A DNA stretch of 64,000 nucleotides from a virus (IMGVR_UViG_3300032820_000001:127134-191133), one strand, 5' to 3'. Counted from the stretch's first letter, positions 5,660-53,855 are shown. Translations and numbers: made by a program. The notes: generated by a model not told the origin, from the letters alone.

Positions 5660-5667
5660 TAAATAGT
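5660..5667 (-). promoter_or_regulatory. Candidate late-promoter motif ACTATTTA
   Basis: Lies 23 nt upstream of the baseplate wedge start; one of ten similar motifs upstream of minus-strand starts. Confidence 0.55.
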
Positions 5668-17825: not shown

Positions 17826-18413
17826 TTATGATTTATTGAATTGTTCTGCTAATTTTTTAACAGACCATTTAGAATTTCGTGAAAGCTTGGCATAGGTATC
17901 CAGTTCCTCTTTAAAGGTCAAAGGTCGATTTCTCACCCTAGTCATGAACTGATCTTCTTGGCCCATCTTCAAATCGCCAACCATGTGCCTATCCCCGTAG
18001 GGGGGAAAGTCGTTGGTTTCGCTCGTGCCAAAAAGGTAGGCACCTTCGGTGCCGACGGGAATAAAAAGAAAAGAATCCTGTCCGTACTCTTCAGATAAAG
18101 TAAACATCATCGTTTCGAACCCTGGATCGTCTGGGAGGTTTACGACAAAGAAACTCTCTTCTGATACCTCCATGGCTGCGGGTTTTGTAAAGTTTTCTAT
18201 ATATGAGCCCTTCACAGCCGTTACTCCATATCCTCTTTCCAGAAGGCGAGCTTTCAGAATCCGATTGGTCTCATAATTTTCTTTTGTTTCCCTGTCTCCT
18301 CGGAAACTTGTAATTATGGCCGTATCGTGTTCGAGCATGTGTGAGTATACCCTCGAAAGTGAGGACATCTCATTTAAGAATTTTTTCCAATTGTCGTGTA
18401 TTTTGTTTGTCAT
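17826..18413 (-). CDS. Phage protein, DUF3293-like, with leader MTNKIHDNWKKFLNE
   Basis: Core TAIITSFRG...N..LKARLLERGYGVTAVKGSYIE...EESFFV resembles DUF3293-type proteins. The N-terminal leader matches those at 33-37 kb. Confidence 0.55.
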   Translation of the reverse strand: MTNKIHDNWKKFLNEMSSLSRVYSHMLEHDTAIITSFRGDRETKENYETNRILKARLLERGYGVTAVKGSYIENFTKPAAMEVSEESFFVVNLPDDPGFETMMFTLSEEYGQDSFLFIPVGTEGAYLFGTSETNDFPPYGDRHMVGDLKMGQEDQFMTRVRNRPLTFKEELDTYAKLSRNSKWSVKKLAEQFNKS

Positions 18414-23838: not shown

Positions 23839-24569
23839 TTTATATTTATCCGTGGTATTTCTGAAGATAGTTCTGATACTTCCGAAATTAAAAAGATCTC
23901 CACCCCAATGGATTTACAAAAAGAATATAACTCAGAAGTAGAAGATATCAATTCATCCTTTTCGCCAGGGAATAACTGTCCTATCTTCGCTCCTGGGTTT
24001 TTTAACACCTTCTTCGCTTTCTTTTCGTCATAAAAGTGTTTGAGAGTTCCGTCATCGGCAGTAGTATAGTCCCATCCATTTATATATAATTTAGAAAAAC
24101 CCATATGAAGCAGTGTGGGAAGTACCGTTTCATACATAATGCCAGGACCCCACCTTCTTATTGGCCCGAAGGAAAAATCATCAAAATTACAATCCGACGC
24201 GGTGGTGTCGCGGTGGGTATCTATCCCACAAAACAAATCCGGGGTATAATTAAAAAAGGTTTTATATTGTTCCGCAGAGAGGGCGCCAGAAGAAGCAAAC
24301 TTTAAAGTATTCGGGTGGTATACATATTCTAAAAAATTATTATCATTAATAAAATGAAAATCTGTTATTTCTTTAAGTTTTATTTGAGATTGTTTTATGC
24401 ATGCTACTTTTTTATTCTCACAGAATTTCTCTATATCTCTCAACTCTAAAGACTTAAATGACGGCCCGCACGAAAATATTACACACTCTTGTCCCGCAAA
24501 TGAGCCTTTCATGAAATCAGATTTTTGTTTAAAAGATTGCAGCTCCCTGAGCGACTTACATGAAAACAT
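23835..24569 (-). CDS. DUF115/MptE-like (Maf-type) protein, candidate nonulosonate transferase
   Basis: Likely start is the ATG at 24569 (MFSCKSL). Motifs CVIFSCGPSF and LLHMGFSKLYINGWD resemble the DUF115/Maf core (G.GPSL...G...I.L.G.D). Confidence 0.6.
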   Translation of the reverse strand: MFSCKSLRELQSFKQKSDFMKGSFAGQECVIFSCGPSFKSLELRDIEKFCENKKVACIKQSQIKLKEITDFHFINDNNFLEYVYHPNTLKFASSGALSAEQYKTFFNYTPDLFCGIDTHRDTTASDCNFDDFSFGPIRRWGPGIMYETVLPTLLHMGFSKLYINGWDYTTADDGTLKHFYDEKKAKKVLKNPGAKIGQLFPGEKDELISSTSELYSFCKSIGVEIFLISEVSELSSEIPRINIK

Positions 24570-25824
24570 TTCTCGCCTCTGCTTCGAGCTCCTCGCGGTG
24601 TGTGCAGTGATCCAAAACAATTGAAGAAAATTTATTATACATTTTTTCTGCCTCAAACTCTTCTTCAACAAATTTCTTCAACTTCTTTGCCTTGTTGGAG
24701 GCCAACTGATAGTCCTTGTAAACATCTCTCATTTTGCTTTTTGCAGAGTTGTCCTTGGGATACGCCCACATAGAATCTGGAGTTATAACCCCTTCCCAGA
24801 CAGACTCCTTTTGAACTTTATGTAAGTCATAAGAAACTTTCCCAAAAAGACCTTTTCTTTTTGTCTTTCCTTTTTTATCCTTCTGGGGGGCGTAGAGAAA
24901 GTCCATATGGCCACTCCAATCTGTGGCGATAATTGGTAAGTCATTGTAGGTCGCTTCAAAGAGGGGGAGGCCGAAGCCTTCTCCGTGAGCCAACGATACC
25001 ATACACTTAATTTTGTCATGACGATAGAGTGTAGTCATCTCTTCGTCTGAGAGTCTCCCGTGTAAAAGATAGATCTTACATTTTCTATCTGGATATTTCT
25101 TAACTAGGTTTTTTAATAGACTTTCGGTACCGAGCTTATCGTATGTTGATCCGCCCCTAATTGCGGTTTTTAAAACAAGACCTACATCCTCCTCATCCTT
25201 GAATTCCTCAACAAAGTTCAAAATTGTCTTTTCAAGATTCTTTCTCTGACCCCATAAAGCGACAGATAAAAAATTAAAAGAAGTTTCAAATTCAAAATTG
25301 ACCTTAGCAGGTTTATATTTTTTAACCGGATACCCAACAACTGATATTGGGGTTTCACAAACTAAGTCAGATACATGTTCACCACTGTTATTCGTTAGGG
25401 GATATTTGGTGTTTTCAAATCCGCGTTTTGCGTGTTCTGAAACTACAATTATCTTGTCCATTTCGTTGGCCTTTTGGAGCCAAATTGGGGCGATCTTGGT
25501 TGTTTCGATCCCTGCCGTTACACCGATATTTACTTTGGCCATCTTCTCAAATTCATTTGGAATTGTCACCTGCAACGATATGTCAAAATCTAAGTTCTCT
25601 TTATTTTGGCTGATATAGTTGGCAGTTTTCCCGATAAGACCATCGATCCACTCTCGCTCTTCGGAATCTTCAAATATCCATCCCGTTTTGCCCCAATTAA
25701 GGTTGTGAAAATATATATCAAAAATATCCTCTCTGGTGCGGAGAGCTCTCAAAACGAAACGTGCATGCTCTCCATACCCAGACGCGGTGAGGGCTGGGCC
25801 TTTTACAATTACTTTCTTTTTCAT
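24556..25824 (-). CDS. Glycosyltransferase family 4 (GT-B)
   Basis: SGYGEHAR, RKNLE, VSLAHGEGFGLPLFEA...IIATDWSGHMDF. Confidence 0.88.
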   Translation of the reverse strand: MKKKVIVKGPALTASGYGEHARFVLRALRTREDIFDIYFHNLNWGKTGWIFEDSEEREWIDGLIGKTANYISQNKENLDFDISLQVTIPNEFEKMAKVNIGVTAGIETTKIAPIWLQKANEMDKIIVVSEHAKRGFENTKYPLTNNSGEHVSDLVCETPISVVGYPVKKYKPAKVNFEFETSFNFLSVALWGQRKNLEKTILNFVEEFKDEEDVGLVLKTAIRGGSTYDKLGTESLLKNLVKKYPDRKCKIYLLHGRLSDEEMTTLYRHDKIKCMVSLAHGEGFGLPLFEATYNDLPIIATDWSGHMDFLYAPQKDKKGKTKRKGLFGKVSYDLHKVQKESVWEGVITPDSMWAYPKDNSAKSKMRDVYKDYQLASNKAKKLKKFVEEEFEAEKMYNKFSSIVLDHCTHREELEAEARNVFM

Positions 25825-27083
25825 ACAATCTCCTTCAGCGTCCAGTTATTATATTTTTTTCTTTCTGCCCAGGAGCCATAATCTACCATCGCCTTTTCAA
25901 TCAGGTCAGCCCATGTCTTTTGGAAGTTCTCAAAATTATAATTCTTATCAACGTGTTCCTTGCCAAGTTGTCCAAGTTTCTTTCTCTCATCTTCTGACAT
26001 TTCGAACATCTTTTGCATGGCATCCGTAACATCTTTTCCGTTGAGGCGATCTTCGAAGATCCAGGGAATCTCCTGTGAGCCTATGATTGCTTTGGATGAT
26101 GGTTCGATGCCGAAGCCGAAGAAGTTCTCGCCGTCCGTGACCTGCTCTTGGAGACCACCTGTCATCGTAGCAATGATTGGGGTTTCACATGCCAGTGATT
26201 CAAGAGTCGCCAAACCAAATCCTTCGGCATCGGAGACGTTTATCGTGCAATCGGCCATGTTATATAAGTGTGCCAAGTCTTGTGGTGGCAACTTTGCAGT
26301 CGAAAACATAACTTGCCCATTGGCCATGCCAAGTTCTTTTATAATAACCTCTAAGTCCTGACCATGTGGATCTTTGACGTCAGTGTGCATAATTAGGCAT
26401 GTTTTGTCATCGCCAATGCGGTCTAACAAATCCTTATACCAATAGATGAGGGAGCCGCTTTGTTTTCTTCGAGCATTTCTATTGTTCCAAAAGAAGATAA
26501 ACTTATCTTCTCCTTTGATTTTTTCCATTACTCTGTTTTTATATTTTATTATTTCATCGCCCGGAAGAGGCTTGAAGATCTCCTGGTTCACCGCGTGGGG
26601 AACGTAGTGGCATTCTACTTCGGGTGCCACCGTTCGAACTATATCGTCCGTGACCTTGGAGATTGTAGCAATTACATCATTAGATAAATAATGTTTTCTA
26701 TTGAATGTCGGGTAAGGGTAATTATCCCAAACGTGATAATAAACCAAGGGGCACAGCGCACGAATCTCGTCATCTATTTCCCACAACCAACCCCAGAAGC
26801 GGGGATCGGTCATTATCCACACCATGTCTATCTTTTCAGTTCTTAAAAACGAACGAATTAGATCTGGTGTTCCGTAGCCGTCGACGGGATGAGTAATCCA
26901 ATCTTCTCCATACTCTTCGGTTTTGGTGGGATTATAATTGCCGTGTTTAACGGCGCCTCCCAGAGAAATAACTTTGTATTTTCCCGTTTTCATCAAAGCA
27001 TCAATAACATACTTTGTCTGTGTTCCGACACCACTTGGTGAAAATGGGTGATCGGAAATTGTTAAAATCTTTTTCTTTGTCAT
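25821..27083 (-). CDS. Glycosyltransferase family 4 (GT-B)
   Basis: SGVGTQ, WNNRNARRKQ, SDAEGFGLATLESLACETPIIA. Likely start is the ATG at 27083 after a GGGG ribosome-binding site. Confidence 0.88.
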   Translation of the reverse strand: MTKKKILTISDHPFSPSGVGTQTKYVIDALMKTGKYKVISLGGAVKHGNYNPTKTEEYGEDWITHPVDGYGTPDLIRSFLRTEKIDMVWIMTDPRFWGWLWEIDDEIRALCPLVYYHVWDNYPYPTFNRKHYLSNDVIATISKVTDDIVRTVAPEVECHYVPHAVNQEIFKPLPGDEIIKYKNRVMEKIKGEDKFIFFWNNRNARRKQSGSLIYWYKDLLDRIGDDKTCLIMHTDVKDPHGQDLEVIIKELGMANGQVMFSTAKLPPQDLAHLYNMADCTINVSDAEGFGLATLESLACETPIIATMTGGLQEQVTDGENFFGFGIEPSSKAIIGSQEIPWIFEDRLNGKDVTDAMQKMFEMSEDERKKLGQLGKEHVDKNYNFENFQKTWADLIEKAMVDYGSWAERKKYNNWTLKEIV

Positions 27084-27091
27084 AGTTTCCC

Positions 27092-27874
27092 CTACGGGCA
27101 ATGTGTCGTCCCCCTAAACTCACATCGATTACAGGACAGACGATTCTTAACATAGTTTTGCCTATCAATATTATAAACCGATTGTTCCAAAAGTTTAAGG
27201 GCATTATTTGTCTTTTTTTCTCCCGATGTAACACGGAAGAATTCAACCCTATCTTTTTTGCCTGTTCTCTTGAGGAGAGCAAAATAAGTTTCAATATTTT
27301 CTTTTGGAATTCCTCGTTTTTCTGAAATGAAATGCTTGTAATAAGTCAGTTGATATGTCACCATTGGATCTGTGCGTTTCCGCATGTCCCAACCCCAGCT
27401 GCAGGATTTCCAGTCAATGACATGATACTTTCCATCTGGGGTTTTGATGATACAATCCACATATCCCTTGAAGGAATACTGGTCATCTGTATCTAATCTT
27501 AATTTTTCATTTATCTCTTCCTCTGAAGAGACAAGATCAAACTCTCCAAAGTATTCTTTGAGGGCTGGTAATATGTGAGGGATTATTTCCCTCCCTTGCT
27601 CTAGGAACACTTTGGCATCATCCATCGATGGTGCAACATCGGGAGGAAGAATTTTCAACTCTTCGACGAGCTGTTTTTTGAAATATTCCTCTGGTTCAAA
27701 GGATTTCTTAATTTGGTTGCTAATAAGCATAGCTTCACAAGTGTCGTGAATAGCTTTTCCAAAGGCGGTATAAACGTTTCCTTGGAAAACTTTTAATTTA
27801 TCTATTCTCGTTAGCTTATGGTAAAAGGCACAAAATTTCCAGTCTTTAATAGCGGAAAATGATACGTGTGGCAA
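27092..27874 (-). CDS. PD-(D/E)XK nuclease, Cas4/AddB-like with Fe-S cysteines
   Basis: HVSFS...C.F, GKAIH, FKGYVD...IDWKS, and a C-terminal CNRCEF...CP. Confidence 0.85.
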   Translation of the reverse strand: MPHVSFSAIKDWKFCAFYHKLTRIDKLKVFQGNVYTAFGKAIHDTCEAMLISNQIKKSFEPEEYFKKQLVEELKILPPDVAPSMDDAKVFLEQGREIIPHILPALKEYFGEFDLVSSEEEINEKLRLDTDDQYSFKGYVDCIIKTPDGKYHVIDWKSCSWGWDMRKRTDPMVTYQLTYYKHFISEKRGIPKENIETYFALLKRTGKKDRVEFFRVTSGEKKTNNALKLLEQSVYNIDRQNYVKNRLSCNRCEFRGTTHCP

Positions 27875-28230: not shown

Positions 28231-28880
28231 ACAAATTTCTCTCCCAAGTTATCTAACAACTCTTCAATCTTAAAATAAACAGCTGGACTAAACAACTTTA
28301 CGTGCTTTGCTTCCCTCATGAAATACTCCTCAAACGCAATTGCAAAATATTCTCTTACTGACGTGGCCGCATAGGGCGACAGGAAAAGACCAGAAGCAAA
28401 GTTTCTTAATAGTGGATATCCAATATCTAAATAGAGGAAATCATCAAACTTTTCCGAATATTCTGCATTAAAGAAGTCTAAACCGCTTAAATCATATCCA
28501 TGTGATGACAGAATTTCATAGAGTTTTTTTCTTTTTCCCAAAAATTCTGTTTCAATTGTCTCGTCCTCATAAATTTGTGGGAGTAATTCTTCAATTGAAT
28601 GGGCCACCTCGTGAACCACGCTCAAGAGGGCAGTTTCGTCATCTTCTATATTTGAGGACATATAAATGATGCCATCTTGATATACTGAATCTACTTCTCG
28701 ATCTCTGAGGTAATCGGAATTGCTTATAAGTATATAATCCAAATCTTGTGTCAGCGGCTGTGGGAGCTTTTTCTGCACAGCTTTCAGAACTGCCTGTACA
28801 TTGAAGGACGCCTTATCCTGAATGATGACTGGAATTCTGTTATACAATAACAATTCTTTTTGTTCTCTATTAACTATCAT
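28227..28880 (-). CDS. Putative zincin metallopeptidase (HExxH)
   Basis: VVHEVAHSIE plus a distal YAATSVREYFA motif that could supply the third ligand, as in anthrax-lethal-factor-like zincins. Confidence 0.55.
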   Translation of the reverse strand: MIVNREQKELLLYNRIPVIIQDKASFNVQAVLKAVQKKLPQPLTQDLDYILISNSDYLRDREVDSVYQDGIIYMSSNIEDDETALLSVVHEVAHSIEELLPQIYEDETIETEFLGKRKKLYEILSSHGYDLSGLDFFNAEYSEKFDDFLYLDIGYPLLRNFASGLFLSPYAATSVREYFAIAFEEYFMREAKHVKLFSPAVYFKIEELLDNLGEKFV

Positions 28881-30187
28881 AAAATTTTAGCCGCAAGTGT
28901 TGCCACTTCGCTTCGCTCACCTTTTTTAAACGACACATGGCCGCCTAAGCTATATTCTTTAAATTTCTCCACCGCGTGGGTGAGACCATTAGAGGTCTCA
29001 TCAACATAAGCATTATCTATTTGTTCTATATCTCCCGTCAATACCAATTTAGAATCTTCTCCCACTCTTGTTATTATAGTCTTTAATTCGTGTCTTGTTA
29101 AATTTTGAGCTTCATCAATGACAATAAAAGCCTTTGAAATAGATCTTCCACGAATATAAGTGATAGCTTCCATCTCTATTGTACCACGATCTAAGTATTC
29201 TTGCAACATTAATTTATCATTTCCCATGAGGAATTGAAGATTATCTTGGATTGGGGTAAGCCACGGGGCCATTTTCTCTTCCATTGTGCCGGGTAGAAAA
29301 CCAATGTCCTTTCCAAGTGGTTGTATTGGCCTCGAAACAATTAAGCGAGTGTAATCTCCGGAAGCCATGACTTGCTCAAGGCCGGCAGATAAGGCACATA
29401 ATGTTTTGCCAGTCCCAGCAGATCCAAGCAGACTGACTACAGGAATCCTTCTATCAAAAAGGATATCCATAGCAAACTGTTGTTCTTTGTTACGGGGAGA
29501 AATTCCATAGGTAGTCTTTTTGTTAAAAATCTTACGGAGTGGTTTGCCGGGCTCTATAAATCTCGCAAGGGCCGTCTTATTCTTGTCTGACTGTGATTTC
29601 AGCAGAAGAAACTGATTGGGGTTGAGATCATCGCACTTTAACTTAAAATTCTTTCCAGCATAAAACTTGTCTATTTTCTCATCGGATATTGTCCTCTCTG
29701 TAAATCCAGTATATACTTCGTCTCCAGACTCAAGAACTTGATCTGGATTATAATCTTGAGTTGGGAGGCCCAGGGCATCACATATTACTCTCATATTAAC
29801 ATCGCGAGATACAAGGATAACATTAACTTTGGGTCGGTTTTTTCTCTCCTGCATTGCTGTTGCAATTATCTTGTGGTCGGGGATTTCTGGGGAGAGGTCA
29901 TCTGGGAGGTATTTATGTACGTCTACATCACTTGGTCTTACTCTTAGAATTCCTTTTCCCTTTTGAATTCGGACTCCTTTATATAAAGATCCTATCTCTC
30001 GCATATCATCGAATATGCGGATAATAGTTCGAGCGTTCGATCCCACTGAGTCTTGTCTCTTCTTATGCTTGTCGATCTCTTCTAGCACCTTCATTGGGAC
30101 AATAATATCGTTTGTTCCATATGCATAAACAGAATTGGCATTTGTCAGAAAAACGCTCGTATCGAGAACGTAGGTACATTTTTTCAT
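28877..30187 (-). CDS. phoH: PhoH-family ATPase with an N-terminal PIN domain (PhoH2/YlaK type)
   Basis: YVLDTSV (PIN domain), GSAGTGKT, YIRGRS, IDEAQN, TGDIEQID, GERSEVA. Confidence 0.93.
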   Translation of the reverse strand: MKKCTYVLDTSVFLTNANSVYAYGTNDIIVPMKVLEEIDKHKKRQDSVGSNARTIIRIFDDMREIGSLYKGVRIQKGKGILRVRPSDVDVHKYLPDDLSPEIPDHKIIATAMQERKNRPKVNVILVSRDVNMRVICDALGLPTQDYNPDQVLESGDEVYTGFTERTISDEKIDKFYAGKNFKLKCDDLNPNQFLLLKSQSDKNKTALARFIEPGKPLRKIFNKKTTYGISPRNKEQQFAMDILFDRRIPVVSLLGSAGTGKTLCALSAGLEQVMASGDYTRLIVSRPIQPLGKDIGFLPGTMEEKMAPWLTPIQDNLQFLMGNDKLMLQEYLDRGTIEMEAITYIRGRSISKAFIVIDEAQNLTRHELKTIITRVGEDSKLVLTGDIEQIDNAYVDETSNGLTHAVEKFKEYSLGGHVSFKKGERSEVATLAAKIL

Positions 30188-30226: not shown

Positions 30227-30234
30227 TAAATAGT
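30227..30234 (-). promoter_or_regulatory. Candidate late-promoter motif ACTATTTA heading the PhoH-to-baseplate gene run
   Basis: Lies 40 nt upstream of phoH in a divergent intergenic region. A near match ACTATTTC at 30243-30250 faces the plus-strand genes. Confidence 0.5.
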
Positions 30235-32265: not shown

Positions 32266-32904
32266 TTAGAATGTCAGCGCAGCTGAAACTGCCACAACAT
32301 TCGCGTCATCATTGCCAGGGGTTTGTTGGCGGAAGTATTCTACACCAGCCGAAAGGCCAGGGCAAACTTCTTTGGATACGGCGGCGGAAATTCGGTTTTC
32401 CACCAACCCACCTTCATTAGCGTGGATTTCATCACCAACACTCAAGTCGAGGCTCACGAAAGGTAACGCAATAGTTTTACTAAGAGTTACTTTTTCGCGA
32501 AGAATCAAAGAGTCAGTGGTGACTGCAGTAATATCATCCCCAGCTTCCATCTGCAAGCGCAAACGGTTTGAGAGGTTGATACCCATAGGAAGACCAACAC
32601 CAGCATTCAAATCCAAGTGAAGTCGGTTGCTTGATGTTCCTTCGGTGTTGGTGTTGCGAACACCAAGACTTAGACCGATATTCTCAGTCACAGAACGAGA
32701 AACGGCGAACTCAGTATGCTCATAGCCTGCTGGTTTCGTCACCATGTCTCCACTAATGCTTAGATCATGGCGGGTTTGTTCTGCCACAGACAGAGTATTA
32801 TCGCCAAGCTTCGCTGATGCGCCAGCTTCCAAACGTAATTCGTCTGCATAACCAACGGTACTTACCAAAAACGCCATAACGGTCGCTAATAGTGCTTTTT
32901 TCAT
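32266..32904 (-). CDS. Putative outer-membrane beta-barrel protein
   Basis: Signal peptide (…VGYA|DE), alternating amphipathic beta-strands, C-terminal ...VSAALTF with terminal Phe (BamA signal), and a strong AAGGAG ribosome-binding site. Confidence 0.7.
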   Translation of the reverse strand: MKKALLATVMAFLVSTVGYADELRLEAGASAKLGDNTLSVAEQTRHDLSISGDMVTKPAGYEHTEFAVSRSVTENIGLSLGVRNTNTEGTSSNRLHLDLNAGVGLPMGINLSNRLRLQMEAGDDITAVTTDSLILREKVTLSKTIALPFVSLDLSVGDEIHANEGGLVENRISAAVSKEVCPGLSAGVEYFRQQTPGNDDANVVAVSAALTF

Positions 32905-32961: not shown

Positions 32962-32990
32962 ATTCTATCATAGTTAAAGTAAAGTGTCAA
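32962..32990 (-). promoter_or_regulatory. Host sigma70-type promoter
   Basis: TTGACA (32990-32985), 17-bp spacer, TAGAAT (32967-32962), upstream of the beta-barrel gene. Confidence 0.85.
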
Positions 32991-33024: not shown

Positions 33025-34086
33025 TCAACTCTTTTTAACGCGGATTTTGATTTCTCTGACCGCTTTCTTAATAAAAGGGGGCTCAAGATTAAATTCGGAA
33101 TTAGGTATTGCTTTAAAGATTTTAGCCAGACCCTTATCTCCCCCAATAGAGGGGTGATCTAATTGTGGCATATCAGGACGATCTGGTGCAGCACTCGAAG
33201 GTTGTGGGAGATTCCCCAGATTCGTTGCAACTTTATTTGCGATTTTATTTATAACCACCTTGGCATTCTCAGCCTCTTCGGGTGTAATATTTGCCCACTT
33301 TAAAATAACAGGATCTTTAGTTTTTCCTATCGTTGCGATCATCTCAGGATTTAAGAGATTACCAGGAGCTTTATCGTCGGTTCGTTCATCTATGTTAGCC
33401 AATATCATCTGTTTTATTTCTTCCGCGTCTTTGCCAATTATATCCGTCTTTGCGTCGCCGCCCTTTGAGGGGAATTCATCAGAAGGATTTGGATCAACAG
33501 CGGCAACTGCAAGTTGGGCAGCTGCAAGTTTTTGAGTTTCGTTGCCGGGGAAGCCCAAATTATTTACTGTAATGCTCGCCGCTGGATTAATTGCATAAGC
33601 TCCTGACCATCGGTGGTGGCCATCAAGCACATACGGAAGAGAAACGGTAATGGGGCCATGGCCGCCACTTTCGATGGCATTCTTTAAGGCTTTTGCAGAA
33701 CCAAGGGGGAAGGCCACGGATTGCATTAAATCAATAAAAGCCTGAGTGGGGTTCATATCATCCAACTTTATGGGCTTTTCTGCAGACACAGGTATTTTAT
33801 CATCCGTGGATGAGCCATCATATTTTGAGTGGGCCATTGCTAGAAATTTCCGGACTTTAGAATCTTTACCTTGAGGAGAGTTCATGAATGCTCGGACGCC
33901 GGCTGGGCCATTGTTAAAGGCTTTCTCGATGGCAACCGCTAATTCTTCTCGCCCTAAAAGTTCGATTTCATCATCCATCTTTGCTTGACTTGATCCTGGG
34001 AGACTTACCTCTTTGAGTATTTTTGTGGGTTTTCCCTCTTCTTCGAAGTGGCGCCAGTTTTCCATAATTAATTTCATGTTGCTCAT
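33025..34086 (-). CDS. ParB/Srx-like domain protein with leader MKLIMENWRHFEEE
   Basis: LDDMNPTQAFID...PITVS..YVLDGHHRW is the ParB/Srx catalytic signature. Confidence 0.7.
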   Translation of the reverse strand: MSNMKLIMENWRHFEEEGKPTKILKEVSLPGSSQAKMDDEIELLGREELAVAIEKAFNNGPAGVRAFMNSPQGKDSKVRKFLAMAHSKYDGSSTDDKIPVSAEKPIKLDDMNPTQAFIDLMQSVAFPLGSAKALKNAIESGGHGPITVSLPYVLDGHHRWSGAYAINPAASITVNNLGFPGNETQKLAAAQLAVAAVDPNPSDEFPSKGGDAKTDIIGKDAEEIKQMILANIDERTDDKAPGNLLNPEMIATIGKTKDPVILKWANITPEEAENAKVVINKIANKVATNLGNLPQPSSAAPDRPDMPQLDHPSIGGDKGLAKIFKAIPNSEFNLEPPFIKKAVREIKIRVKKS

Positions 34087-34120
34087 AATTAAGTCTCCTA
34101 AAATAAGAATCTAACAATAC

Positions 34121-34128
34121 TAAATAGC
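34121..34128 (-). promoter_or_regulatory. Candidate late-promoter motif GCTATTTA
   Basis: Lies 35 nt upstream of the ParB-like gene. Confidence 0.5.
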
Positions 34129-34153
34129 ATTCTAGCACAGTAAGTGCCTTTTT

Positions 34154-34465
34154 TTAATGATCGTGGCCACACTCATATTCTTTTTTATTTTTATCTCCCC
34201 AAAATTTGAGATATATCATCCAAAGAATGGGGACGGCAACTGGATGGAGGCACAAAAGCCAGCTTACGGGGATTAAAGCGTAAAATGCTGGGAAGTATTG
34301 TCCTAACCAATAGAATAAGGCCGGGAATAAAATATCCTCTACAATCTCCCATCCAATAAGGATGACGAGGAGAGGCATTCCATAATCCACTATAATCTTT
34401 TTAAAATTGTCTCGTTTCCAGAAAGAGAATTTATATTTCACTTTCTCCACAAATTGTTTAAGCAC
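34154..34465 (-). CDS. Hypothetical membrane protein
   Basis: 103 aa with two to three hydrophobic segments. Confidence 0.6.
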   Translation of the reverse strand: MLKQFVEKVKYKFSFWKRDNFKKIIVDYGMPLLVILIGWEIVEDILFPALFYWLGQYFPAFYALIPVSWLLCLHPVAVPILWMIYLKFWGDKNKKEYECGHDH

Positions 34466-34467
34466 TT

Positions 34468-34977
34468 TTAAATCTTTCTATCTATGATTGCTGATTCTGG
34501 CGGACTCACAAGAATTTCCGAAAAGGTCATGTAGGGATCATCACCTTCCCAATACGCTTCTGCAAAACCCCTCGCTCGATCTTCGTCGCCACGCTCAAAG
34601 GATGTGACTGCCTCAGTCCAGTATTCGGAATTTGTTCTAAATAAATTGTATTCTCCCTGAAGTCTTATCTCGTAAGTCTCACCTCCGCCACGGGCTGGAT
34701 AACTACAAAAACTGCCTCCTTCTGGGCCGTCAAGGTTCTCACACAAATAAACACAATCTAAGCGGCTGGGGCGTTCTGGAAATTGTTCTTTTCTGACTTC
34801 CTCAAAAATCTCTTCTACTCTGCCGTTCCCTTGGGAGCGAGGATTGGATCGCGGGACGTGACTGGAGCCTTGACGGATTTTGCCGTCACCACTCCAAGCT
34901 CCTGTCGTCTGCCAATAATAGGTTTGACGGGGGCCTTCGTTTAAATAACTTTTCCACTGTTCCATTAATAGTTTCAT
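34468..34977 (-). CDS. DUF2441-like (ADP-ribosyltransferase-fold) protein with leader MKLLMEQWKSYLNE
   Basis: EEIFEEVRKEQFPERPSRLDCVY...AEAYWEG...SEILV matches the DUF2441-type pattern as recalled. Confidence 0.55.
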   Translation of the reverse strand: MKLLMEQWKSYLNEGPRQTYYWQTTGAWSGDGKIRQGSSHVPRSNPRSQGNGRVEEIFEEVRKEQFPERPSRLDCVYLCENLDGPEGGSFCSYPARGGGETYEIRLQGEYNLFRTNSEYWTEAVTSFERGDEDRARGFAEAYWEGDDPYMTFSEILVSPPESAIIDRKI

Positions 34978-35357
34978 TTTAATTTCCGCGCCTTTTCGAT
35001 GGCAACATTGAGCATTTGTTTAACGAGCTGTTTGGGAAAAGTTTTAATCACATTGCCGTCTTCGGCTTCTTCATAAAAACCCTTATCCACATAATAATCC
35101 ATCGTATTTTCAAGCATTTCTGTGTAGTCATCAGTGATACGATTATCATCGTTACGCGAGACGAGCCTTTCAACCGCCGCTGGCATATTCGTGGTTAATA
35201 AATCTCTCATATCACTGTGGAGTGATTCTGAACCGATTCGCTCAAGTTCTTGGTGGTTGTCCCAATCGTCTTGTGGTAAACCAACGGGCTTAAGCCTAGA
35301 TGCTTTTTCATCGTTCTCATTTATAAATTTTTTCCACTGTTCCATTAAAAGTTTCAC
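34974..35357 (-). CDS. Hypothetical protein with leader MKLLMEQWKKFINE
   Basis: 127 aa; GTGA and ATGA overlaps with its neighbours. Confidence 0.75.
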   Translation of the reverse strand: MKLLMEQWKKFINENDEKASRLKPVGLPQDDWDNHQELERIGSESLHSDMRDLLTTNMPAAVERLVSRNDDNRITDDYTEMLENTMDYYVDKGFYEEAEDGNVIKTFPKQLVKQMLNVAIEKARKLK

Positions 35358-35986
35358 TCTGCGTCCTCCTTAACAAGTTCTTTATCAACAATTTTATATC
35401 CGTTGACAACGCCGACATTGTAATAATCAAATCCGTCCAGTAAGCAAATCTTTTGTTCCTGAAATTCTCCGGTTGCTTCTTTCGCGCAGACCTGTCCGAC
35501 GATTTCTGTAAATAGGGCGGGTGCGGCTTCTGGAGGTAATGTTTTTAAATGAACATTGTAGGCTTTTAATTCTCCGGCCAAACCGAACGGTGTTCCTGTC
35601 GAACCGAAAGCTTGAATGTGAGACATATAATCATGGATGGCTCGGAACTTTGCATTTGTAATTTCATCGAATAAAGCATGATCTGCATCGATTGTTGCAA
35701 CCTTCATTATTCCGTTCTCCTCGACATCTCGACGGATATCCGCATCGGTTTCGTAGGGGTGGTAATCAACAAATTGTACTTCGACTCTCGATTGAATTTG
35801 TTTGAACATCTTTTCGATGAATGGAACGGTGGCCTCAAAAGATGAAACAGCTCTAGGCTCAAAACTTGGTGCAGCCATGTAAGCCTTTGCAACCAAGTCA
35901 CGATACAAGTCCCAGCCATTTGGCCCAGGCTTGAGCATGAGCTTTTCGTTCAAAAATCCTCGCCAGTTTTCCATTAGGAGTTTCAT
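35354..35986 (-). CDS. Putative metal-binding protein (FRAIHDYMSH...GE motif) with leader MKLLMENWRGFLNE
   Basis: 210 aa; N..FRAIHD...H...F...GE..A...H...ALFTE..GQ pattern. Confidence 0.55.
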   Translation of the reverse strand: MKLLMENWRGFLNEKLMLKPGPNGWDLYRDLVAKAYMAAPSFEPRAVSSFEATVPFIEKMFKQIQSRVEVQFVDYHPYETDADIRRDVEENGIMKVATIDADHALFDEITNAKFRAIHDYMSHIQAFGSTGTPFGLAGELKAYNVHLKTLPPEAAPALFTEIVGQVCAKEATGEFQEQKICLLDGFDYYNVGVVNGYKIVDKELVKEDAE

Positions 35987-36501
35987 TTTACACTGTCTCC
36001 TGGATTTCCCGTAAGGTTGGCTAATGAAACATGAAATATGCGCTCTGGTTCGGGGTTGGGAGAACCGCCGATCATTTCCATTATAAGATTAACATAATCT
36101 CTCATATCTTGCTGGTTCGCAACATTTGCCACCCACGACATTCTCTGGAGATCTTCAGCCACCTTCATTTGGGGTGGTTCACTCAAATCCAGTTGAACTG
36201 GGGGTGGTTCAGGAAGCTTGTTTTCTTTGCCCATTTGTTTGAGTAATTTTTTATAAGGTTTTAAAACACTCTGGTGGGCTAGCGTCACATGAAAATTTTC
36301 AGGTGTCAGCGGTACAGGAGAGGCTGACGATCCGGGTTTCCAGGGAATTTCAACCTTCTCCGGTAATTTATTTAATGCTTCCTGTGCCTGGGAGACAATA
36401 TCTGACGAGGGCATTAATTTAAGGATGCCGCTAAACTTAACTTTGGGCTGCCCCTCTTCTTCTGTCATATATTCTCGCCAGTTTTCCATTAATAATTTCA
36501 T
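35983..36501 (-). CDS. 2H phosphoesterase (Acb1/LigT-like) with leader MKLLMENWREYMTEE
   Basis: Two HxT/HxS motifs, FHVTL and FHVSL, about 78 aa apart. Confidence 0.8.
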   Translation of the reverse strand: MKLLMENWREYMTEEEGQPKVKFSGILKLMPSSDIVSQAQEALNKLPEKVEIPWKPGSSASPVPLTPENFHVTLAHQSVLKPYKKLLKQMGKENKLPEPPPVQLDLSEPPQMKVAEDLQRMSWVANVANQQDMRDYVNLIMEMIGGSPNPEPERIFHVSLANLTGNPGDSVK

Positions 36502-37193
36502 GCCTCTAAACTCCTTAAAAAATCGACGGTGCTAGAGATATTATCTGCAGAGTGATGTATAGCTTCTCCTCCGGCTTGTTCAAATTGATCTATATATTTG
36601 GTGCGGTCATCAATTAAAATAGCTCGTCCTCCTGCGTCGATGATTCCCAGGTTCTGGAGGGCAGCGCCTTTTTCACCGGTAATAATTATATTATCGATTT
36701 CTGGAAAGTGATGAGATAACCATTCTTTCTTTCCTTCCGCCGAAGCATCATCAACTGGCGATGTCAACACATGTACATTTCCCAGACCTTGGGCCAAGTC
36801 CACCATTTCTTTCGCTCCGGGAAGGATTCCCATATCAGCCCACACTTGAGAATCGTTGGAAATAAGGGAAAACAAATAATCACTAATTCTCTTTTCCACT
36901 TTGGTTCTTTCTTGGCCTGCATCTTTTCTGGCTGTCATCTCTTCTAGTTCTTTGGGAGTTATTGGTGTAGTTCTTCCTTCTTCTTCCATCACCTTCTGGA
37001 GTCTTCTCAGTGCTTTTCGTTTGGATTTGGATTCGGCATAAAACTCATCTGGATTTTTATCTATTGTGCTGTTAATTAATTCTGCAACTTTGCCAGCGAA
37101 ATCAACTAACACACCATCCATATCAAAAAAGATATTAACGCCTTCGGTATCTTCATTCAAATACTGTCGCCAATTTTCCATTAAAAGTCTCAT
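36498..37193 (-). CDS. HAD-superfamily 5'(3')-nucleotidase-like protein (NT5C type) with leader MRLLMENWRQYLNE
   Basis: IFFDMDGVLVDF, VLTSP, GKKEWL..HF, ILIDDR...F..AGG.AIH. Confidence 0.85.
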   Translation of the reverse strand: MRLLMENWRQYLNEDTEGVNIFFDMDGVLVDFAGKVAELINSTIDKNPDEFYAESKSKRKALRRLQKVMEEEGRTTPITPKELEEMTARKDAGQERTKVEKRISDYLFSLISNDSQVWADMGILPGAKEMVDLAQGLGNVHVLTSPVDDASAEGKKEWLSHHFPEIDNIIITGEKGAALQNLGIIDAGGRAILIDDRTKYIDQFEQAGGEAIHHSADNISSTVDFLRSLEA

Positions 37194-37229: not shown

Positions 37230-37237
37230 TAAGTACT
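37230..37237 (-). promoter_or_regulatory. Candidate late-promoter motif AGTACTTA, overlapping the 16-bp palindrome GTACTTACGTAAGTAC (37221-37236)
   Basis: Heads the leader-gene array, 37 nt upstream of 37193. Confidence 0.5.
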
Positions 37238-37242
37238 TGATT

Positions 37243-37425
37243 TTATTGGTGTTTTTTTGACGGTTTTGGCCGCTTTTTAAACTTCTTTTCTACCTGCTCA
37301 AGACGAACCTTAATAAGCTCCGTTTCAATTTCAAGTTCTCGAAGGGTTGTGCCAACATAAGTCATCATTCCAATAACCAATGCAGTCACCACCGCTGTTC
37401 CTACTTTTGCTAAATCAATTTTCAT
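37243..37425 (-). CDS. Small protein with one transmembrane helix, a coiled coil and a basic tail
   Basis: 60 aa. Confidence 0.6.
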   Translation of the reverse strand: MKIDLAKVGTAVVTALVIGMMTYVGTTLRELEIETELIKVRLEQVEKKFKKRPKPSKKHQ

Positions 37426-37430
37426 AAAAA

Positions 37431-37438
37431 TAAGTAGT
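37431..37438 (-). promoter_or_regulatory. Candidate late-promoter motif ACTACTTA
   Basis: Lies 6 nt upstream of the start at 37425. Confidence 0.5.
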
Positions 37439-37650: not shown

Positions 37651-40005
37651 TTATTCCAAAGCTAGTGCAAAAACTTCCTCCACCGTTTCGGGAAAGAAGA
37701 ATTCAACCTCTTCTTTGATTTTATCTGGAACATCTTTCATATCCTTCTCATTTTTTGGAGGAAGGAGTATTCTTTTGATTCCTAAGCGGTGAGCAGCAAT
37801 AACTTTCTCTTTGATTCCGCCCACAGGCAGCACCAGACCGCGCAGGCTCGTTTCTCCGGTCATTGCAGTGTCCGAGCGTACCTTCTTGTCACTTAATAGC
37901 GAAACGAGTGCTGTGCTTATTGCAATGCCTGCTGAGGGGCCGTCCTTTGGGGTTGCCCCAGCTGGGAAATGGATATGGAGATCTGTTTCTTCTAAAAAGT
38001 TCTTGTTCTCTTCTTTTGTGAGGCCAAGAGCAATTGCTTTGGATCGAATTAAACTTACTGCAGTCTTTGCAGATTCGGTCATGACGTCGCCAATCTTACC
38101 AGTTAAAGTTAAATTTCCTTTGCCGGGCATTTTGGTGGCTTCGATATATAATATATCTCCCCCGGAAGCAGTCCAAGCTAAACCAGTTGAAACACCAGGA
38201 TTTCTTGCTCTTGTATCGGGCTCAACGTCAAATTTTTCTGGACCAAGAAATGTATCAAGATTATAAGTATTTATAATTTTAATGATGTGTTGCGGCTGTT
38301 CTTTTTCTTGTTCCTTGGCAACCAATGCCGCAACATAACGGCATACTTTGGCAATTTGTCTTTCAAGCCCCCGGACTCCAGCCTCTCTGGTATATTGCAA
38401 AATAATTTTATTAAGGGCGCCCGGTTTAATGATGATATTAGTATCAGAGAGTCCATTCTTTTTTATTTGTTTTGGGACAAGATGTTTGGTTGCAATATTT
38501 TCCTTTTCTTCGTATGTATATCCAGATAATTCTATAATTTCCATTCGATCACGAAGAGGCCCAGATATTGTTCTGAGACTATTGGCTGTTGCAATAAAAA
38601 GGCAATTTGAAAGATCAATTGGAATATCAAGGTAGTGATCCATAAATTCATTGTTCTGCTCTGGATCAAGAACCTCTAGCATCGCTGATGCTGGATCTCC
38701 TTTATAATCTTTGCTCATCTTATCAATCTCATCGAGTAAAAAGAGTGGGTTGTTGACGCCAATATTTATCATCGACTTTACTATTTTTCCTGGCATGGCG
38801 CCGATATAAGTTTTTCGATGGCCTCTAATTTCTGATTCATCGCCGACGCCGCCGAGAGAAACTCTTTTCATTTTGCGACCTAAAGCTTGGGCAATTGATT
38901 TTCCTAGCGAAGTTTTGCCAACTCCAGGTGGCCCAACCAAACAAAGGATTGGCCCTTTCATATCGTCCTTTAATTTACGGACAGCAAGATATTCAATAAT
39001 TCTATCCTTAACGTCGTCAAGGCCATGGTGGTCATCGTCAAGTTGTTTTTTCACATCTGTCAATTTTAGACTATCGCGGGTATAAACATCCCAGGGAAAA
39101 TCTAAAATAGTTTCAAGATAATTTAGAGAAACATTATATTCCGCCTGATTTGGCTGCATATTACGCATCCTCTTAATTTCTTTCGTGGCTGTCTTAACAA
39201 CCTCATCAGGTAAATCAATGTTTTTCATCTTTTCCTTGAAAACATTTAACTCATCATTTTCTTCGGCGCCTTCGCCAAGCTCTTGATTAATTGCTCTGAG
39301 TTGTTGGCGCAAATAATATTCTCTTTGATTCCTTGAAATTTCTTCTTTAACTGATGTATTAATTTTATCTGAGAGGACGAGCATTTCGTGCTTTCTTCCT
39401 AAAATTTCCATGGCCTTTATAACTCTTTGGCTTACATCATATGTTTCCAGTACTGCTTGTCTTTCCTCAACCGCTTCACCTAAGTTTCCTGCTACCACGT
39501 CGGCCAAGACCCCAGGATCTTCGATGGTATCAATAAAGTTCTTGACGCTTGAAGGAATTTCAGGGAGAGCAGAAATAATATCGAAAGAAGTTTCTCTTAA
39601 AGTTTGAAATAGTAATTGAAGTTCACTTGAATTCGATGAAGGTGGAATTTCAGGATATTCTACTGCTGCAGTAAAGAACGGTTCTGAGGTATTCATTTCA
39701 CTATATTCAATTCTTCTTATTCCCTCGATAATTACATTATAATTACCATCGGAGGTTTTAGAAAATTTTATAATTTTCGCTAACGTTCCAACTTTATATA
39801 AATCTAAATCAATTGGTTCTTCAACCTCTACGTCTTTTTGAGCCACGACGCCAAATTCAGTTCCCGTCTTGATAACTGCATTGATTAATTTTAAAGATTT
39901 CTCTCGACCAATTAAAAGAGGCATAACTGTGCCAGGAAAGAACACTGCATTTTTTAAAGGCAGGATAGGTATTAAATTGTCTTTTCCTTTATTTATTCCA
40001 AACAA
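37651..40005 (-). CDS. lon: ATP-dependent Lon protease (full-length LonA type)
   Basis: N-domain LPLKNAVFFPG, Walker A GPPGVGKTS, LLDEIDK, GPLRDRME, catalytic Ser in KDGPSAG and Lys in VGGIKEK. Confidence 0.96.
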   Translation of the reverse strand: MFGINKGKDNLIPILPLKNAVFFPGTVMPLLIGREKSLKLINAVIKTGTEFGVVAQKDVEVEEPIDLDLYKVGTLAKIIKFSKTSDGNYNVIIEGIRRIEYSEMNTSEPFFTAAVEYPEIPPSSNSSELQLLFQTLRETSFDIISALPEIPSSVKNFIDTIEDPGVLADVVAGNLGEAVEERQAVLETYDVSQRVIKAMEILGRKHEMLVLSDKINTSVKEEISRNQREYYLRQQLRAINQELGEGAEENDELNVFKEKMKNIDLPDEVVKTATKEIKRMRNMQPNQAEYNVSLNYLETILDFPWDVYTRDSLKLTDVKKQLDDDHHGLDDVKDRIIEYLAVRKLKDDMKGPILCLVGPPGVGKTSLGKSIAQALGRKMKRVSLGGVGDESEIRGHRKTYIGAMPGKIVKSMINIGVNNPLFLLDEIDKMSKDYKGDPASAMLEVLDPEQNNEFMDHYLDIPIDLSNCLFIATANSLRTISGPLRDRMEIIELSGYTYEEKENIATKHLVPKQIKKNGLSDTNIIIKPGALNKIILQYTREAGVRGLERQIAKVCRYVAALVAKEQEKEQPQHIIKIINTYNLDTFLGPEKFDVEPDTRARNPGVSTGLAWTASGGDILYIEATKMPGKGNLTLTGKIGDVMTESAKTAVSLIRSKAIALGLTKEENKNFLEETDLHIHFPAGATPKDGPSAGIAISTALVSLLSDKKVRSDTAMTGETSLRGLVLPVGGIKEKVIAAHRLGIKRILLPPKNEKDMKDVPDKIKEEVEFFFPETVEEVFALALE

Positions 40006-45995: not shown

Positions 45996-46003
45996 TAAGT
46001 AGT
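45996..46003 (-). promoter_or_regulatory. Candidate late-promoter motif ACTACTTA
   Basis: Lies 10 nt upstream of the metallopeptidase start. Confidence 0.5.
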
Positions 46004-46386: not shown

Positions 46387-46827
46387 TTATTCTTTTGGCT
46401 CTTTAGATTCCTTGGCGGTAAGGGGCATTCCCAGGTCAACTGGTTTCCCTGTGGCCACGCGGCCAAGAGTATCTTGTTTAACCTTGGTCAACATTGGATT
46501 TTCACCAGTCATTGTGCTTGCCAAGTAATCAATACTACCATCAATTGTTGAAAGTGTATTTAATTTGTCGCTAATTTTCTGGAGGAGTCGAATAAGCTCA
46601 GGATCGGCATCTTCGGTCTCTTCTTGAATAATTTCTTCTACCATCTCAGTGTTACCAATCAAATCAGCTTCTCGGTGAGCATCCACCTCATCGCGATCTT
46701 CTGAGTTTGAAACCATGGGCGAAGCTTCCACGGAGGGGTATGCATCTTCACTTACTTCCTCTTCGGTGTACCGTCGCCAGTCCTCAAATATTTTCTGTTG
46801 CTTTTTAAAGCTGCTAAATTTTGTCAT
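46387..46827 (-). CDS. Acidic hypothetical protein with leader MTKFSSFKKQQKIFEDWRRYTEE
   Basis: The real start is probably 46827, after GAGGAG. The leader resembles the MKLLMENWR family. Confidence 0.7.
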   Translation of the reverse strand: MTKFSSFKKQQKIFEDWRRYTEEEVSEDAYPSVEASPMVSNSEDRDEVDAHREADLIGNTEMVEEIIQEETEDADPELIRLLQKISDKLNTLSTIDGSIDYLASTMTGENPMLTKVKQDTLGRVATGKPVDLGMPLTAKESKEPKE

Positions 46828-47158
46828 TTTTTTTCTCCTCTCGAAATGGTTCCATTTCGGCACCCTTGAAGGAAGGTAGATCAGGACGCGATGGGCCCGC
46901 ATCGGGATCCCGTTGCAAATCAGGACGGCCCGCGTAGATTTCATCTACCCAGCCCAATACCTTCTCCTTGATTTTGCTGATAGCTTCCTCGCCGATGGCT
47001 GAGAGATCCATACCCAAGAATTTTTCTAGGTCGCCTACATTTTCGGCTGAGTAATCAATCCCCAAACGCTTTGCGCGACCCCGCGCCAAAGCAGTTTCGG
47101 AAACCGCTTCTTCCTCGACATGTCTATTCCACGTTTCGTGTAATTTATGATATTTCAT
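46814..47158 (-). CDS. Hypothetical protein with leader MKYHKLHETWNRHVEE
   Basis: The real start is probably 47158, after GGAGG. Variant of the leader family. Confidence 0.7.
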   Translation of the reverse strand: MKYHKLHETWNRHVEEEAVSETALARGRAKRLGIDYSAENVGDLEKFLGMDLSAIGEEAISKIKEKVLGWVDEIYAGRPDLQRDPDAGPSRPDLPSFKGAEMEPFREEKKNDKI

Positions 47159-53847: not shown

Positions 53848-53855
53848 TAAATAGG
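53848..53855 (-). promoter_or_regulatory. Candidate late-promoter motif CCTATTTA
   Basis: Lies 41 nt upstream of the 2215-aa gene. Confidence 0.5.

Follow-up and report, generated by a model that had tools for sequence, protein, structure and literature searches.

Candidate capsid-targeting leader shared by unrelated enzymes in uncultivated marine T4-like phages

Introduction

Why do six genes that encode unrelated proteins begin with nearly the same peptide? This question is raised by a viral DNA stretch of 64,000 nucleotides (IMGVR_UViG_3300032820_000001:127134-191133), called the window hereafter, the positions of which are counted from its first letter. Between positions 33025 and 37193, six genes of the minus strand open with M[KR]L[LI]ME[NQ]W[RK]x[FY]xxE and then continue into unrelated domains. 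An earlier examination of this DNA, here the sequence-only reading, had proposed that the common leader is an address tag similar to the capsid-targeting sequence (CTS) of the phage T4 internal proteins, and that the locus is an array of virion-delivered enzymes for counter-defence or host takeover.

What the diverse internal proteins of T4 have in common is only the conserved CTS, by which they are loaded into the scaffolding core (PMC3012670). Ten CTS residues are enough for targeting, and the residues used for targeting and for processing are separable (PMC9026906). The prohead proteases of T4-type and giant phages cleave after Glu (PMC5694885), and hydrophobic-x-Glu is the kind of site that is cut by the T4-type enzymes (PMC5694885, PMC9026906). 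In the T-even phages, more than 30 variants of internal proteins are found in two hypervariable loci (PMC2839356).

From the computational analysis reported here, it is concluded that the 14-residue leader is probably a capsid-targeting propeptide specific to one lineage, a marine clade of uncultivated T4-like myoviruses with genomes of about 180-200 kb, and that it is an analogue of the T4 CTS with its internal-protein loci. This conclusion is drawn from sequence comparison and from analogy with T4. A role of the tagged proteins as injected counter-defence enzymes is less likely than capsid targeting. The address-tag idea is partly borne out: each indirect test that was run (prohead protease, hydrophobic-x-Glu, cargo swap, tag swap, head-operon position and promoter-like motif) speaks in its favour.

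Results

Six leader genes in a complete T4-type genome

The window lies at the end of a viral record made up of one contig (191,133 bp, 44% G+C), which has direct terminal repeats according to its IMG/VR class and a CheckV completeness of 100%. T4-type portal, large terminase and tail sheath genes are present, together with a gene for a gp23-type major capsid protein. The prohead protease, which the sequence-only reading had proposed to look for, is encoded in the same genome and is a Peptidase_S77 enzyme of the T4 gp21 type (209 residues, G000:C1:97049-97678; E 6e-34). On this gene content, the genome is considered to be that of a complete, distant T4-type phage. Its nearest cultured relatives by capsid protein are the Flavobacterium phage immuto group, Microcystis phage Mel-JY01 and Rhodothermus phage RM378; because the identity is only 42-47%, the phage is regarded as a distant, uncultivated relative of T4. 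Near-identical DNA was found in seawater and marine metagenomes from several studies, and no RNA run was among the matching runs listed.

Three scans of the complete genome, by a strict regular expression, by a looser one and by a 16-column profile of 120 leaders, each returned exactly six full copies of the leader, which head the genes named here A to F (A having the lowest coordinates). The six near-identical 14-residue starts that had been read from the sequence all exist, on the minus strand. The profile added a weak seventh match, MTNKIHDNWKKFLNE (12 bits), which heads the gene at 17826-18413 and, like the six others, is N-terminal. The chaining of five genes was also confirmed, F, E, D, C and B being linked in this order by four ATGA/GTGA start-stop overlaps. 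Gene A is separated from gene B by a leaderless gene for a 103-residue membrane protein, and its leader opens at the second ATG (34077), behind Met-Ser-Asn. An array of six genes is comparatively large: complete relatives were found to have two to five tagged genes, although some relatives reach eight. In addition, a small open reading frame (ORF) at about 46814-47158 (minus strand), which starts 1-2 nt past the stop of a gene of 2215 codons and begins with MKYHKLHETWNRHVEEE, is faintly similar to the leader and could represent a degenerate eighth copy of it.

Conservation of the leader peptide

The IMG/VR database was scanned with a degenerate DNA pattern that covers codons 1-9 only. At least 120 loci matched this pattern, nearly all of them at ORF starts, against about 0.5 chance matches expected by our own estimate; on these figures, a chance origin of the leader is excluded. 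The tagged ORFs of the relatives (n=135) fell into 79 unrelated cargo clusters. The consensus of the 14 residues is M-K-L-[LI]-M-E-N-W-[RKN]-x-[FY]-[LIV]-x-E. Its conservation was measured over 122 distinct proteins, positions 10-14 lying outside the search pattern. Position 11 was Phe or Tyr in 105 of the 122 leaders and position 12 was hydrophobic in 105, Glu was present at position 14 in 94, and a hydrophobic-x-Glu triplet ended at residues 13-15 in 109. Beyond the leader, the sequences become acidic and then unrelated.

In predicted models of high confidence, the leader appears as a separate helix or as a low-confidence segment ahead of the folded domain. For gene A (pLDDT 89.7), the leader helix spans residues 2-13, and residues 18-29 are below pLDDT 50. 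Modelled as an N-terminal helix, the leader would be amphipathic.

At the DNA level, Leu3 is specified by all six of its codons and Arg9 by both CGN and AGR. The six leaders of the array have on average 71% of their 42 bases in common, with many synonymous codons. Since the codons vary freely while the residues stay conserved, selection acts on the peptide.

The size and CheckV completeness of the leader-holding records imply genomes of about 180-200 kb in all 50 that were examined. A gp21-type protease was detected in 22 of these 50 records, and in five out of five among the complete ones. In 596 Gb of cellular genomes, the pattern was matched 24 times: 19 of the matches were due to chance in short ORFs, and five were real leaders, all on contigs of metagenome-assembled genomes (MAGs), the three larger of which were examined and resemble phage DNA. 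Leader arrays are present on contigs binned as Opitutia, candidate division WOR-3 and Pelagibacter MAGs (L144, L152 and L155, GTDB genome_contigs); the array of candidate division WOR-3 lies within a 2.85-Mb 'chromosome', and L152 also holds genes up to 60% identical to those of the present phage. These three contigs are likely to be mis-binned or mis-assembled phage DNA and not clues to the host. A literature search returned no paper with the string MENWR in a relevant sense. Even if it is not a capsid address, the leader is still an unusually widespread and strongly selected N-terminal module that needs another explanation.

Position of tagged genes in the head module

Following the sequence-only reading, Glu-type cleavage sites were sought in the capsid protein. 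Its propeptide is conserved in six genomes and contains the sites LTE, LLE, LLE and LRE, which are of the same kind as the hydrophobic-x-Glu at the end of the leader and the last of which is located 19 residues ahead of a conserved FPIVRR block.

The 1351 ORFs that neighbour the tagged genes in 120 loci were then clustered. The commonest neighbours were the portal, large terminase, prohead protease and head-module genes. The head module was included in 30 of the 120 sampled loci and, in about 20 of those 30, a tagged gene with variable cargo occupied one fixed slot, the order being large terminase, portal, a 271-residue gene, a 178-residue gene, the tagged gene, a small membrane protein and the protease. 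This slot within the portal-protease operon presumably corresponds to that of the genes for prohead core proteins of T4, 67 and 68. In the present genome the slot is empty, the 178-residue gene being directly followed by the membrane-protein gene. A gene of family A lies directly behind the protease in two loci (L025 and L026). The same place is occupied, in a further locus found via gene D (L177), by a family-D protein that carries a second type of leader.

Interchangeable leaders on the same enzymes

This second leader type is MKITKRQLRRIIREE-like, and orthologous enzymes were found to carry the first tag, the second tag or none. In the family of gene E, a 2H phosphoesterase, the proteins open with the first type, with MSLLREYIRxLLxE, with the second type or without any leader (120 listed of 224), and the junction is constant, just before VKFSGILK. 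Families A and D have either the first or the second type. The orthologue of the HAD enzyme encoded by gene F has no leader in one relative (G001), where it starts directly at DMDGVLV, and a MKLLLENW leader in another (G019). Both leader types are also present within a single array on one phage-like MAG contig. The tag is modular and is joined at a constant point across orthologues.

In the present genome, the second leader type is restricted to two proteins, MQIKKSRLRQIIKEE... and MKKSDLKKVLKPIIKE..., which are encoded just after the prohead protease; the second-type protein of 132 residues is kept at the same place in relatives. Besides the protease and the capsid protein, the head module comprises proteins of 265, 132 and 359 residues. 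If the tag is a capsid address, the exchange, between orthologues of one enzyme, of two leader classes, one of which is also present on head-module proteins, suggests that new cargo is recruited by copying the N-terminus of a core protein.

These results bear on another explanation, in which the leader is a docking helix for a partner outside the prohead, such as RNA polymerase, the ribosome, the membrane or a phage hub protein, and gathers accessory enzymes with neither packaging nor cleavage. What is directly visible is indeed a conserved amphipathic N-terminal helix on diverse cargo, and the DNA methylase, kinases and acetyltransferases found among the tagged proteins of relatives would work equally well in the cytoplasm. 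However, no partner gene or enzyme recurs among the 1351 ORFs of the 120 loci, where head-module genes recur instead, and a dedicated modifying or partner enzyme for the tag was accordingly rejected. A docking helix would also leave unexplained the conserved terminal hydrophobic-x-Glu, the constant junction with leaderless orthologues and the position in the head operon, and the second tag, which can replace the first, forms the N-terminus of proteins whose genes lie beside that of the protease. We consider a docking helix to be unlikely.

In addition to the capsid-targeting reading, it is tentatively proposed that marine T4-like phages use an 'address code' of at least two interchangeable leaders, MKLIMENWRxFLxE-like and MKITKRQLRRIIREE-like, the second of which would be borrowed from prohead core proteins. 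If this were true, the injected proteins of uncultivated ocean phages could be listed from sequence alone. The injected set would hold counter-defence enzymes acting before any phage gene expression, for example an S-adenosylmethionine (SAM) lyase against SAM-dependent restriction, or a 2H phosphodiesterase of the kind by which cyclic-nucleotide alarm signals are degraded.

Plasticity of the array

According to the sequence-only reading, the cargo should vary between relatives, and this is the case. In a complete relative (G016), the genes that flank the syntenic locus (a 121-residue, a 1000-residue and a trypsin-like gene) are homologous to those found here, and the five tagged genes of this locus are all unrelated to the six of the present array. 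On this comparison, the cassette site is hyperplastic, as are the internal-protein loci of the T-even phages.

The same relative is informative about a possible role of the leader as a degradation tag, read by a phage Lon or by host proteases and timing the removal of early proteins. In favour of such a role, a full-length Lon gene is found in the window two small genes upstream of the array (37651-40005, minus strand); its product has 784 residues, with a substrate-binding N-domain, an AAA+ domain and an S16 domain. Yet the syntenic locus of G016 has tagged genes and no Lon gene. Moreover, the Lon C-terminal domain was found in none of the five complete leader-carrying relatives, against 13 of 14 reference genomes in a control search, and nothing points to a host-protease version. 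Since none of these five relatives has one, the phage Lon looks like a recent acquisition. A degron read by the phage Lon was rejected on its absence from all five, and a degradation tag in general is held to be very improbable.

Insertions and deletions were also observed between marine populations. Over D-E-F, the contigs of two runs from a single marine study have 96% identity to the array, and they contain 1690 extra letters between 37184 and 37283. The boundary of this insertion at 37184 falls inside the leader of gene F, and the joint is considered trustworthy because its sides are about 200 letters long. Gene A is skipped in contigs from two other marine runs, which is weaker evidence because the sides of the joint are short. 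Joints with sides of 27-35 letters that end in leaders were left uncounted; they may only reflect the similarity of leaders between different phages.

Such joints lead to the question of whether the conserved 5' end is a device of the DNA or RNA, namely a recombination site and/or a re-initiation coupling signal (an ATGA overlap with AAA as second codon), the peptide being a passenger. The four ATGA/GTGA overlaps that chain five genes, the insertion boundary in the F leader and the several weaker joints that also end in leaders are in agreement with such a device, and the hypervariable internal-protein loci of T-even phages have promoter and stem-loop elements at their flanks to which shuffling is ascribed (PMC2839356). 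On the other hand, it is the residues that are conserved and not the codons, with six Leu codons and both Arg families in use; the conserved residues 10-14 are distant from the start codon; and many tagged genes are solitary or begin three codons later as MS[DEN]-MKL..., so that translational coupling is not required. The passenger explanation is therefore judged improbable, and a role in recombination or coupling at the DNA level may contribute to cassette turnover. As for the suggestion that leader DNA seeds recombination, it gains a little from the one well-supported insertion boundary and is weakened by the leaders being only 71% alike over 42 bases.

A promoter-like motif common to the array and the structural genes

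The motif that was said to head the array was found, and it is shared with structural genes. It corresponds to CTA[CT]TTA (often aCTACTTA) and not to the T4 late promoter TATAAATA; the latter occurs in 15 copies where about 11 are expected, is not placed before genes, and was rejected as a promoter in this genome. The genome, 95% of which is coding, has 49 copies of CTA[CT]TTA; 44 of them are on the coding strand and 21 are intergenic, compared to 8 intergenic ones among the 79 copies of the reversed control. Copies of the motif stand ahead of the capsid-protein operon and of the neck, tail and giant structural genes, and likewise ahead of gene A and of the transcription unit to which the array belongs.

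An exact copy, ACTACTTA (37431..37438, minus strand), was located by the motif scan 5 nt before the 60-residue gene that heads the transcription unit. The genome has nine copies of ACTACTTA, all on the coding strand and seven of them intergenic, and the others precede neck, tail and giant structural genes. The same scan revealed a copy with one mismatch, AGTACTTA, inside a palindrome 44 nt before gene F (37230..37237, minus strand), and a CTATTTA motif 41 nt before gene A (34121..34127, minus strand); because of this motif, gene A looks like a transcription unit of its own. Further copies of CTA[CT]TTA in the window are at 5660-5666, 30227-30233, 45996-46002 and 53848-53854. Among 123 leader genes of the relatives, 26 have an aCTATTTA 10-50 nt upstream, where 2.2 would be expected. 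By its placement, CTA[CT]TTA is a candidate late promoter of the far-T4 clade, unlike that of T4. A scan for sigma-70 promoters and terminators between 30 and 41 kb gave results no better than those of shuffled sequences.

Cargo of the leader genes

All genes of the array are on the minus strand. Gene F (36498..37193) joins the leader MRLLMENWRQYLNE (37152-37193) to a HAD/NT5C 5'-nucleotidase. Its assignment as a HAD nucleotidase was confirmed by Pfam, with 40.9 bits for PF06941 (NT5C; gathering threshold 24.8) and 26.7 bits for PF00702 (26.4). The HAD motif I (DxDGV) is found as DMDGVLV at residues 24-30, and the PHROG annotation is 5'-3' deoxyribonucleotidase.

In gene E (35983..36501), the leader MKLLMENWREYMTE (36460-36501) is followed by a protein with two H-x-T/S motifs, and the histidines of HVTL and HVSL are invariant or nearly so in 114 sequences. 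The model has a pLDDT of 90.7 and, among the Foldseek matches listed to rank 37, almost all are 2H enzymes (best E 0.013, probability 0.99; none reaches E 0.001). These motifs and matches support the earlier assignment to the 2H phosphoesterases. Fold neighbours include CPDase, a phage phosphodiesterase, LigT, Usb1 and the anti-CBASS enzyme Acb1, and do not fix the substrate. The family comprises 224 homologues, the best 120 of which were listed, and has no match in GenBank phages.

Gene D (35354..35986) encodes the leader MKLLMENWRGFLNE (35945-35986) and a phage protein which, as described previously, is of the HDxxxH type: an HDYMSH motif is present, and the family, phrog_3170, is one without known function. 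An Atlas search with gene D returned unnamed viral clusters only. Gene C (34974..35357) has a GTG start, the leader (V/M)KLLMEQWKKFINE (35316-35357) and a 113-residue body for which no relative was found in Pfam or PHROG.

Gene B (34468..34977) starts with the leader MKLLMEQWKSYLNE (34936-34977). Its DUF2441 domain was verified by a match to PF10386 of 27.6 bits (cut-off 25), covering residues 55-84 only, and by the Atlas, in which the nearest named clusters are all DUF2441 (0.96); in PHROG it belongs to phrog_5663.

Gene A (33025..34086) consists of Met-Ser-Asn, the leader MKLIMENWRHFEEE (34036-34077) and a body of the DGHHRW family, a large family of marine phages in which this motif is invariant in 120 sequences. 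The best Foldseek/VIA matches of the core were ParB-N, sulfiredoxin, a serine kinase, SbnI, KorB and Atu1540, with E of at least 0.086 and Z not above 4.0. These fold matches are weak but all of ParB/Srx type, in agreement with the ParB/Srx-like domain announced by the sequence-only reading, and gene A may have a ParB/Srx-like core. The family has 124 homologues with alternating leaders, and a single weak homologue in GenBank phages, from Microcystis phage Mel-JY01. PDB sequence searches with genes A, D and E gave nothing useful.

Outside the array, the seventh gene (17826..18413, minus strand), with the divergent leader MTNKIHDNWKKFLNE, encodes a SAM lyase (S-AdoMet_lyase, PF23780; 44.7 bits, gathering 28). 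PF23780 was found in all 120 homologues listed, most of which open with leader variants such as MKQILNEWKRFL or MKQLMENWNKYL. SAM lyase is the enzyme class of the T3 anti-restriction protein. In the relatives, tagged cargo includes P-loop kinases, GNAT acetyltransferases, NUDIX, an M23 peptidase, a C5 methylase and a tRNA-ligase-type phosphodiesterase. The mixture found in the present genome, with a 5'-nucleotidase, a 2H phosphoesterase, DUF2441, a putative ParB/Srx-like protein, two proteins of unknown function and a SAM lyase, would fit immediate host takeover or counter-defence.

Two leaderless genes accompany the array on the same strand. Immediately upstream of it, a 60-residue gene (37243..37425) has a hydrophobic N-terminal stretch by eye. 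The 103-residue protein encoded between B and A (34154..34465) is hydrophobic and probably membrane-spanning, also by eye. No family match was obtained for either of them in Pfam or PHROG.

Discussion

By analogy with T4, promoters of the CTA[CT]TTA type would drive the array together with the virion genes, and the coupled genes would be translated one after the other. The amphipathic N-terminal helix would dock each protein onto the assembling prohead core, and the gp21-type prohead protease would cut after the terminal hydrophobic-x-Glu. This cleavage would free in the head a mature enzyme, starting about where the leaderless orthologues begin. The enzymes would exit with the DNA at infection and could act before any phage gene expression.

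The closest known system is that of the T4 CTS (MKTYQEFIAE) and the internal proteins IPI, IPII, IPIII and Alt (Mullaney and Black 1996, reviewed in PMC9026906, PMC3012670 and PMC5694885). In both cases, a short N-terminal propeptide common to otherwise unrelated proteins is predicted or known to form an amphipathic helix ending in hydrophobic-x-Glu, the phage encodes a gp21-type protease, and the cargo varies between relatives and includes enzymes, T4 Alt being an ADP-ribosyltransferase. However, the leader described here has 14 residues instead of 10. The T4 internal proteins are small and basic, whereas the present cargo consists mostly of mid-sized enzymes of 130-620 residues. Two interchangeable leader classes coexist here, one of them also on head-module proteins, and in many relatives a tagged gene lies within the portal-protease operon, which is unlike T4; packaging and cleavage are here predictions from sequence.

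The locus also resembles the hyperplastic T-even loci (Repoila et al. 1994 and Comeau et al. 2007, cited in PMC2839356), as gene content changes at a fixed site, each cassette opens with a conserved leader and insertions or deletions are seen, here between marine populations. Unlike the T-even loci, which have sigma-70-type early promoters with stem-loops, the flanks here are formed by the CTA[CT]TTA motif and translational coupling, and tagged genes are also present at several other sites, the head operon included. In the giant phages phiKZ, 201phi2-1 and SPN3US, N-terminal propeptides of head-packaged proteins are likewise removed after Glu by a related prohead protease, and paralogues of ejection proteins can have identical N-termini, a further likeness to the present tag (PMC5694885). 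The giant-phage propeptides are mostly longer than 100 residues with the motif A/S-x-E (PMC5694885), whereas those described here are short, T4-like and attached to dozens of unrelated cargo families.

Several observations weigh against capsid targeting. By inspection, no homology to the T4 CTS is apparent beyond M-K, Glu6 and the final hydrophobic-x-Glu, and a tblastn search with the 20-residue leader in 50,697 GenBank phage records, T-even phages included, gave one chance-level match, so that the leader is absent from this set. Because of these two results, it is regarded as an analogue and not as a member of the T4 CTS family. About one quarter of the leaders are without Glu14, though most of these have the site one residue off. 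For the tagged C5 DNA methylase, P-loop kinases and GNAT acetyltransferases of relatives, a use within the capsid is not obvious. Because the loci were sampled for holding the leader, their neighbourhood counts do not amount to an unbiased census. The promoter role of CTA[CT]TTA is deduced from its position only. Finally, an extended -10-like element, TGcTAGAAT, was noticed by eye upstream of gene A, its -10 hexamer also appearing in the scan, and could mean an earlier expression of this gene.

If the tag is a capsid address, the packaged or injected proteins of abundant uncultivated ocean phages become predictable by a simple motif search, and the open question of what environmental phages deliver besides DNA is turned into a testable list. 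This list would already have hundreds of entries (families A and E and the SAM-lyase family). Enzymes, and not only small inhibitors like T4 IPI*, would be pre-loaded for the first seconds of infection, and short, portable packaging tags would become available for the engineering of non-coli phages.

Other features of the genome

Next to the array, a near-consensus sigma-70 promoter (TTGACA, 17 nt, TG-n-TAGAAT; 32962-32990, minus strand) lies ahead of a gene for a DUF2490 outer-membrane-like protein (32266-32904). This protein has a signal peptide, and 482 letters of its gene are replaced in contigs from other marine samples.

Outside the window, a bS21 ribosomal protein homologue of 73 residues (G000:C1:95372-95593, minus strand; Pfam 29.3 bits, cut-off 27) is encoded within the head-assembly module, directly after the 132-residue core-like protein, and has the same place in a relative (L026:6952-7167). 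Four consecutive genes of 3071, 552, 400 and 453 residues (G000:C1:80691-94427, minus strand), also outside the window, have in common the N-terminal module (MEGYNM)TKKGIAV.SGS, and their first 100 residues or so are alike beyond this module. Two small neighbours of 141 and 125 residues both carry MSNYYSYKPGI. The proteins of these two groups are probably paralogues that share an anchoring domain and serve as fibre or decoration proteins of the virion.

Upstream of the region, an accessory block (24556-27101, 27092-27874 and 28877-30187, all on the minus strand) contains two GT4 glycosyltransferases, a PD-(D/E)XK nuclease and a PIN-PhoH protein. Both glycosyltransferases also match the model 'GT4 in conflict systems', and the block may be involved in DNA or surface modification.

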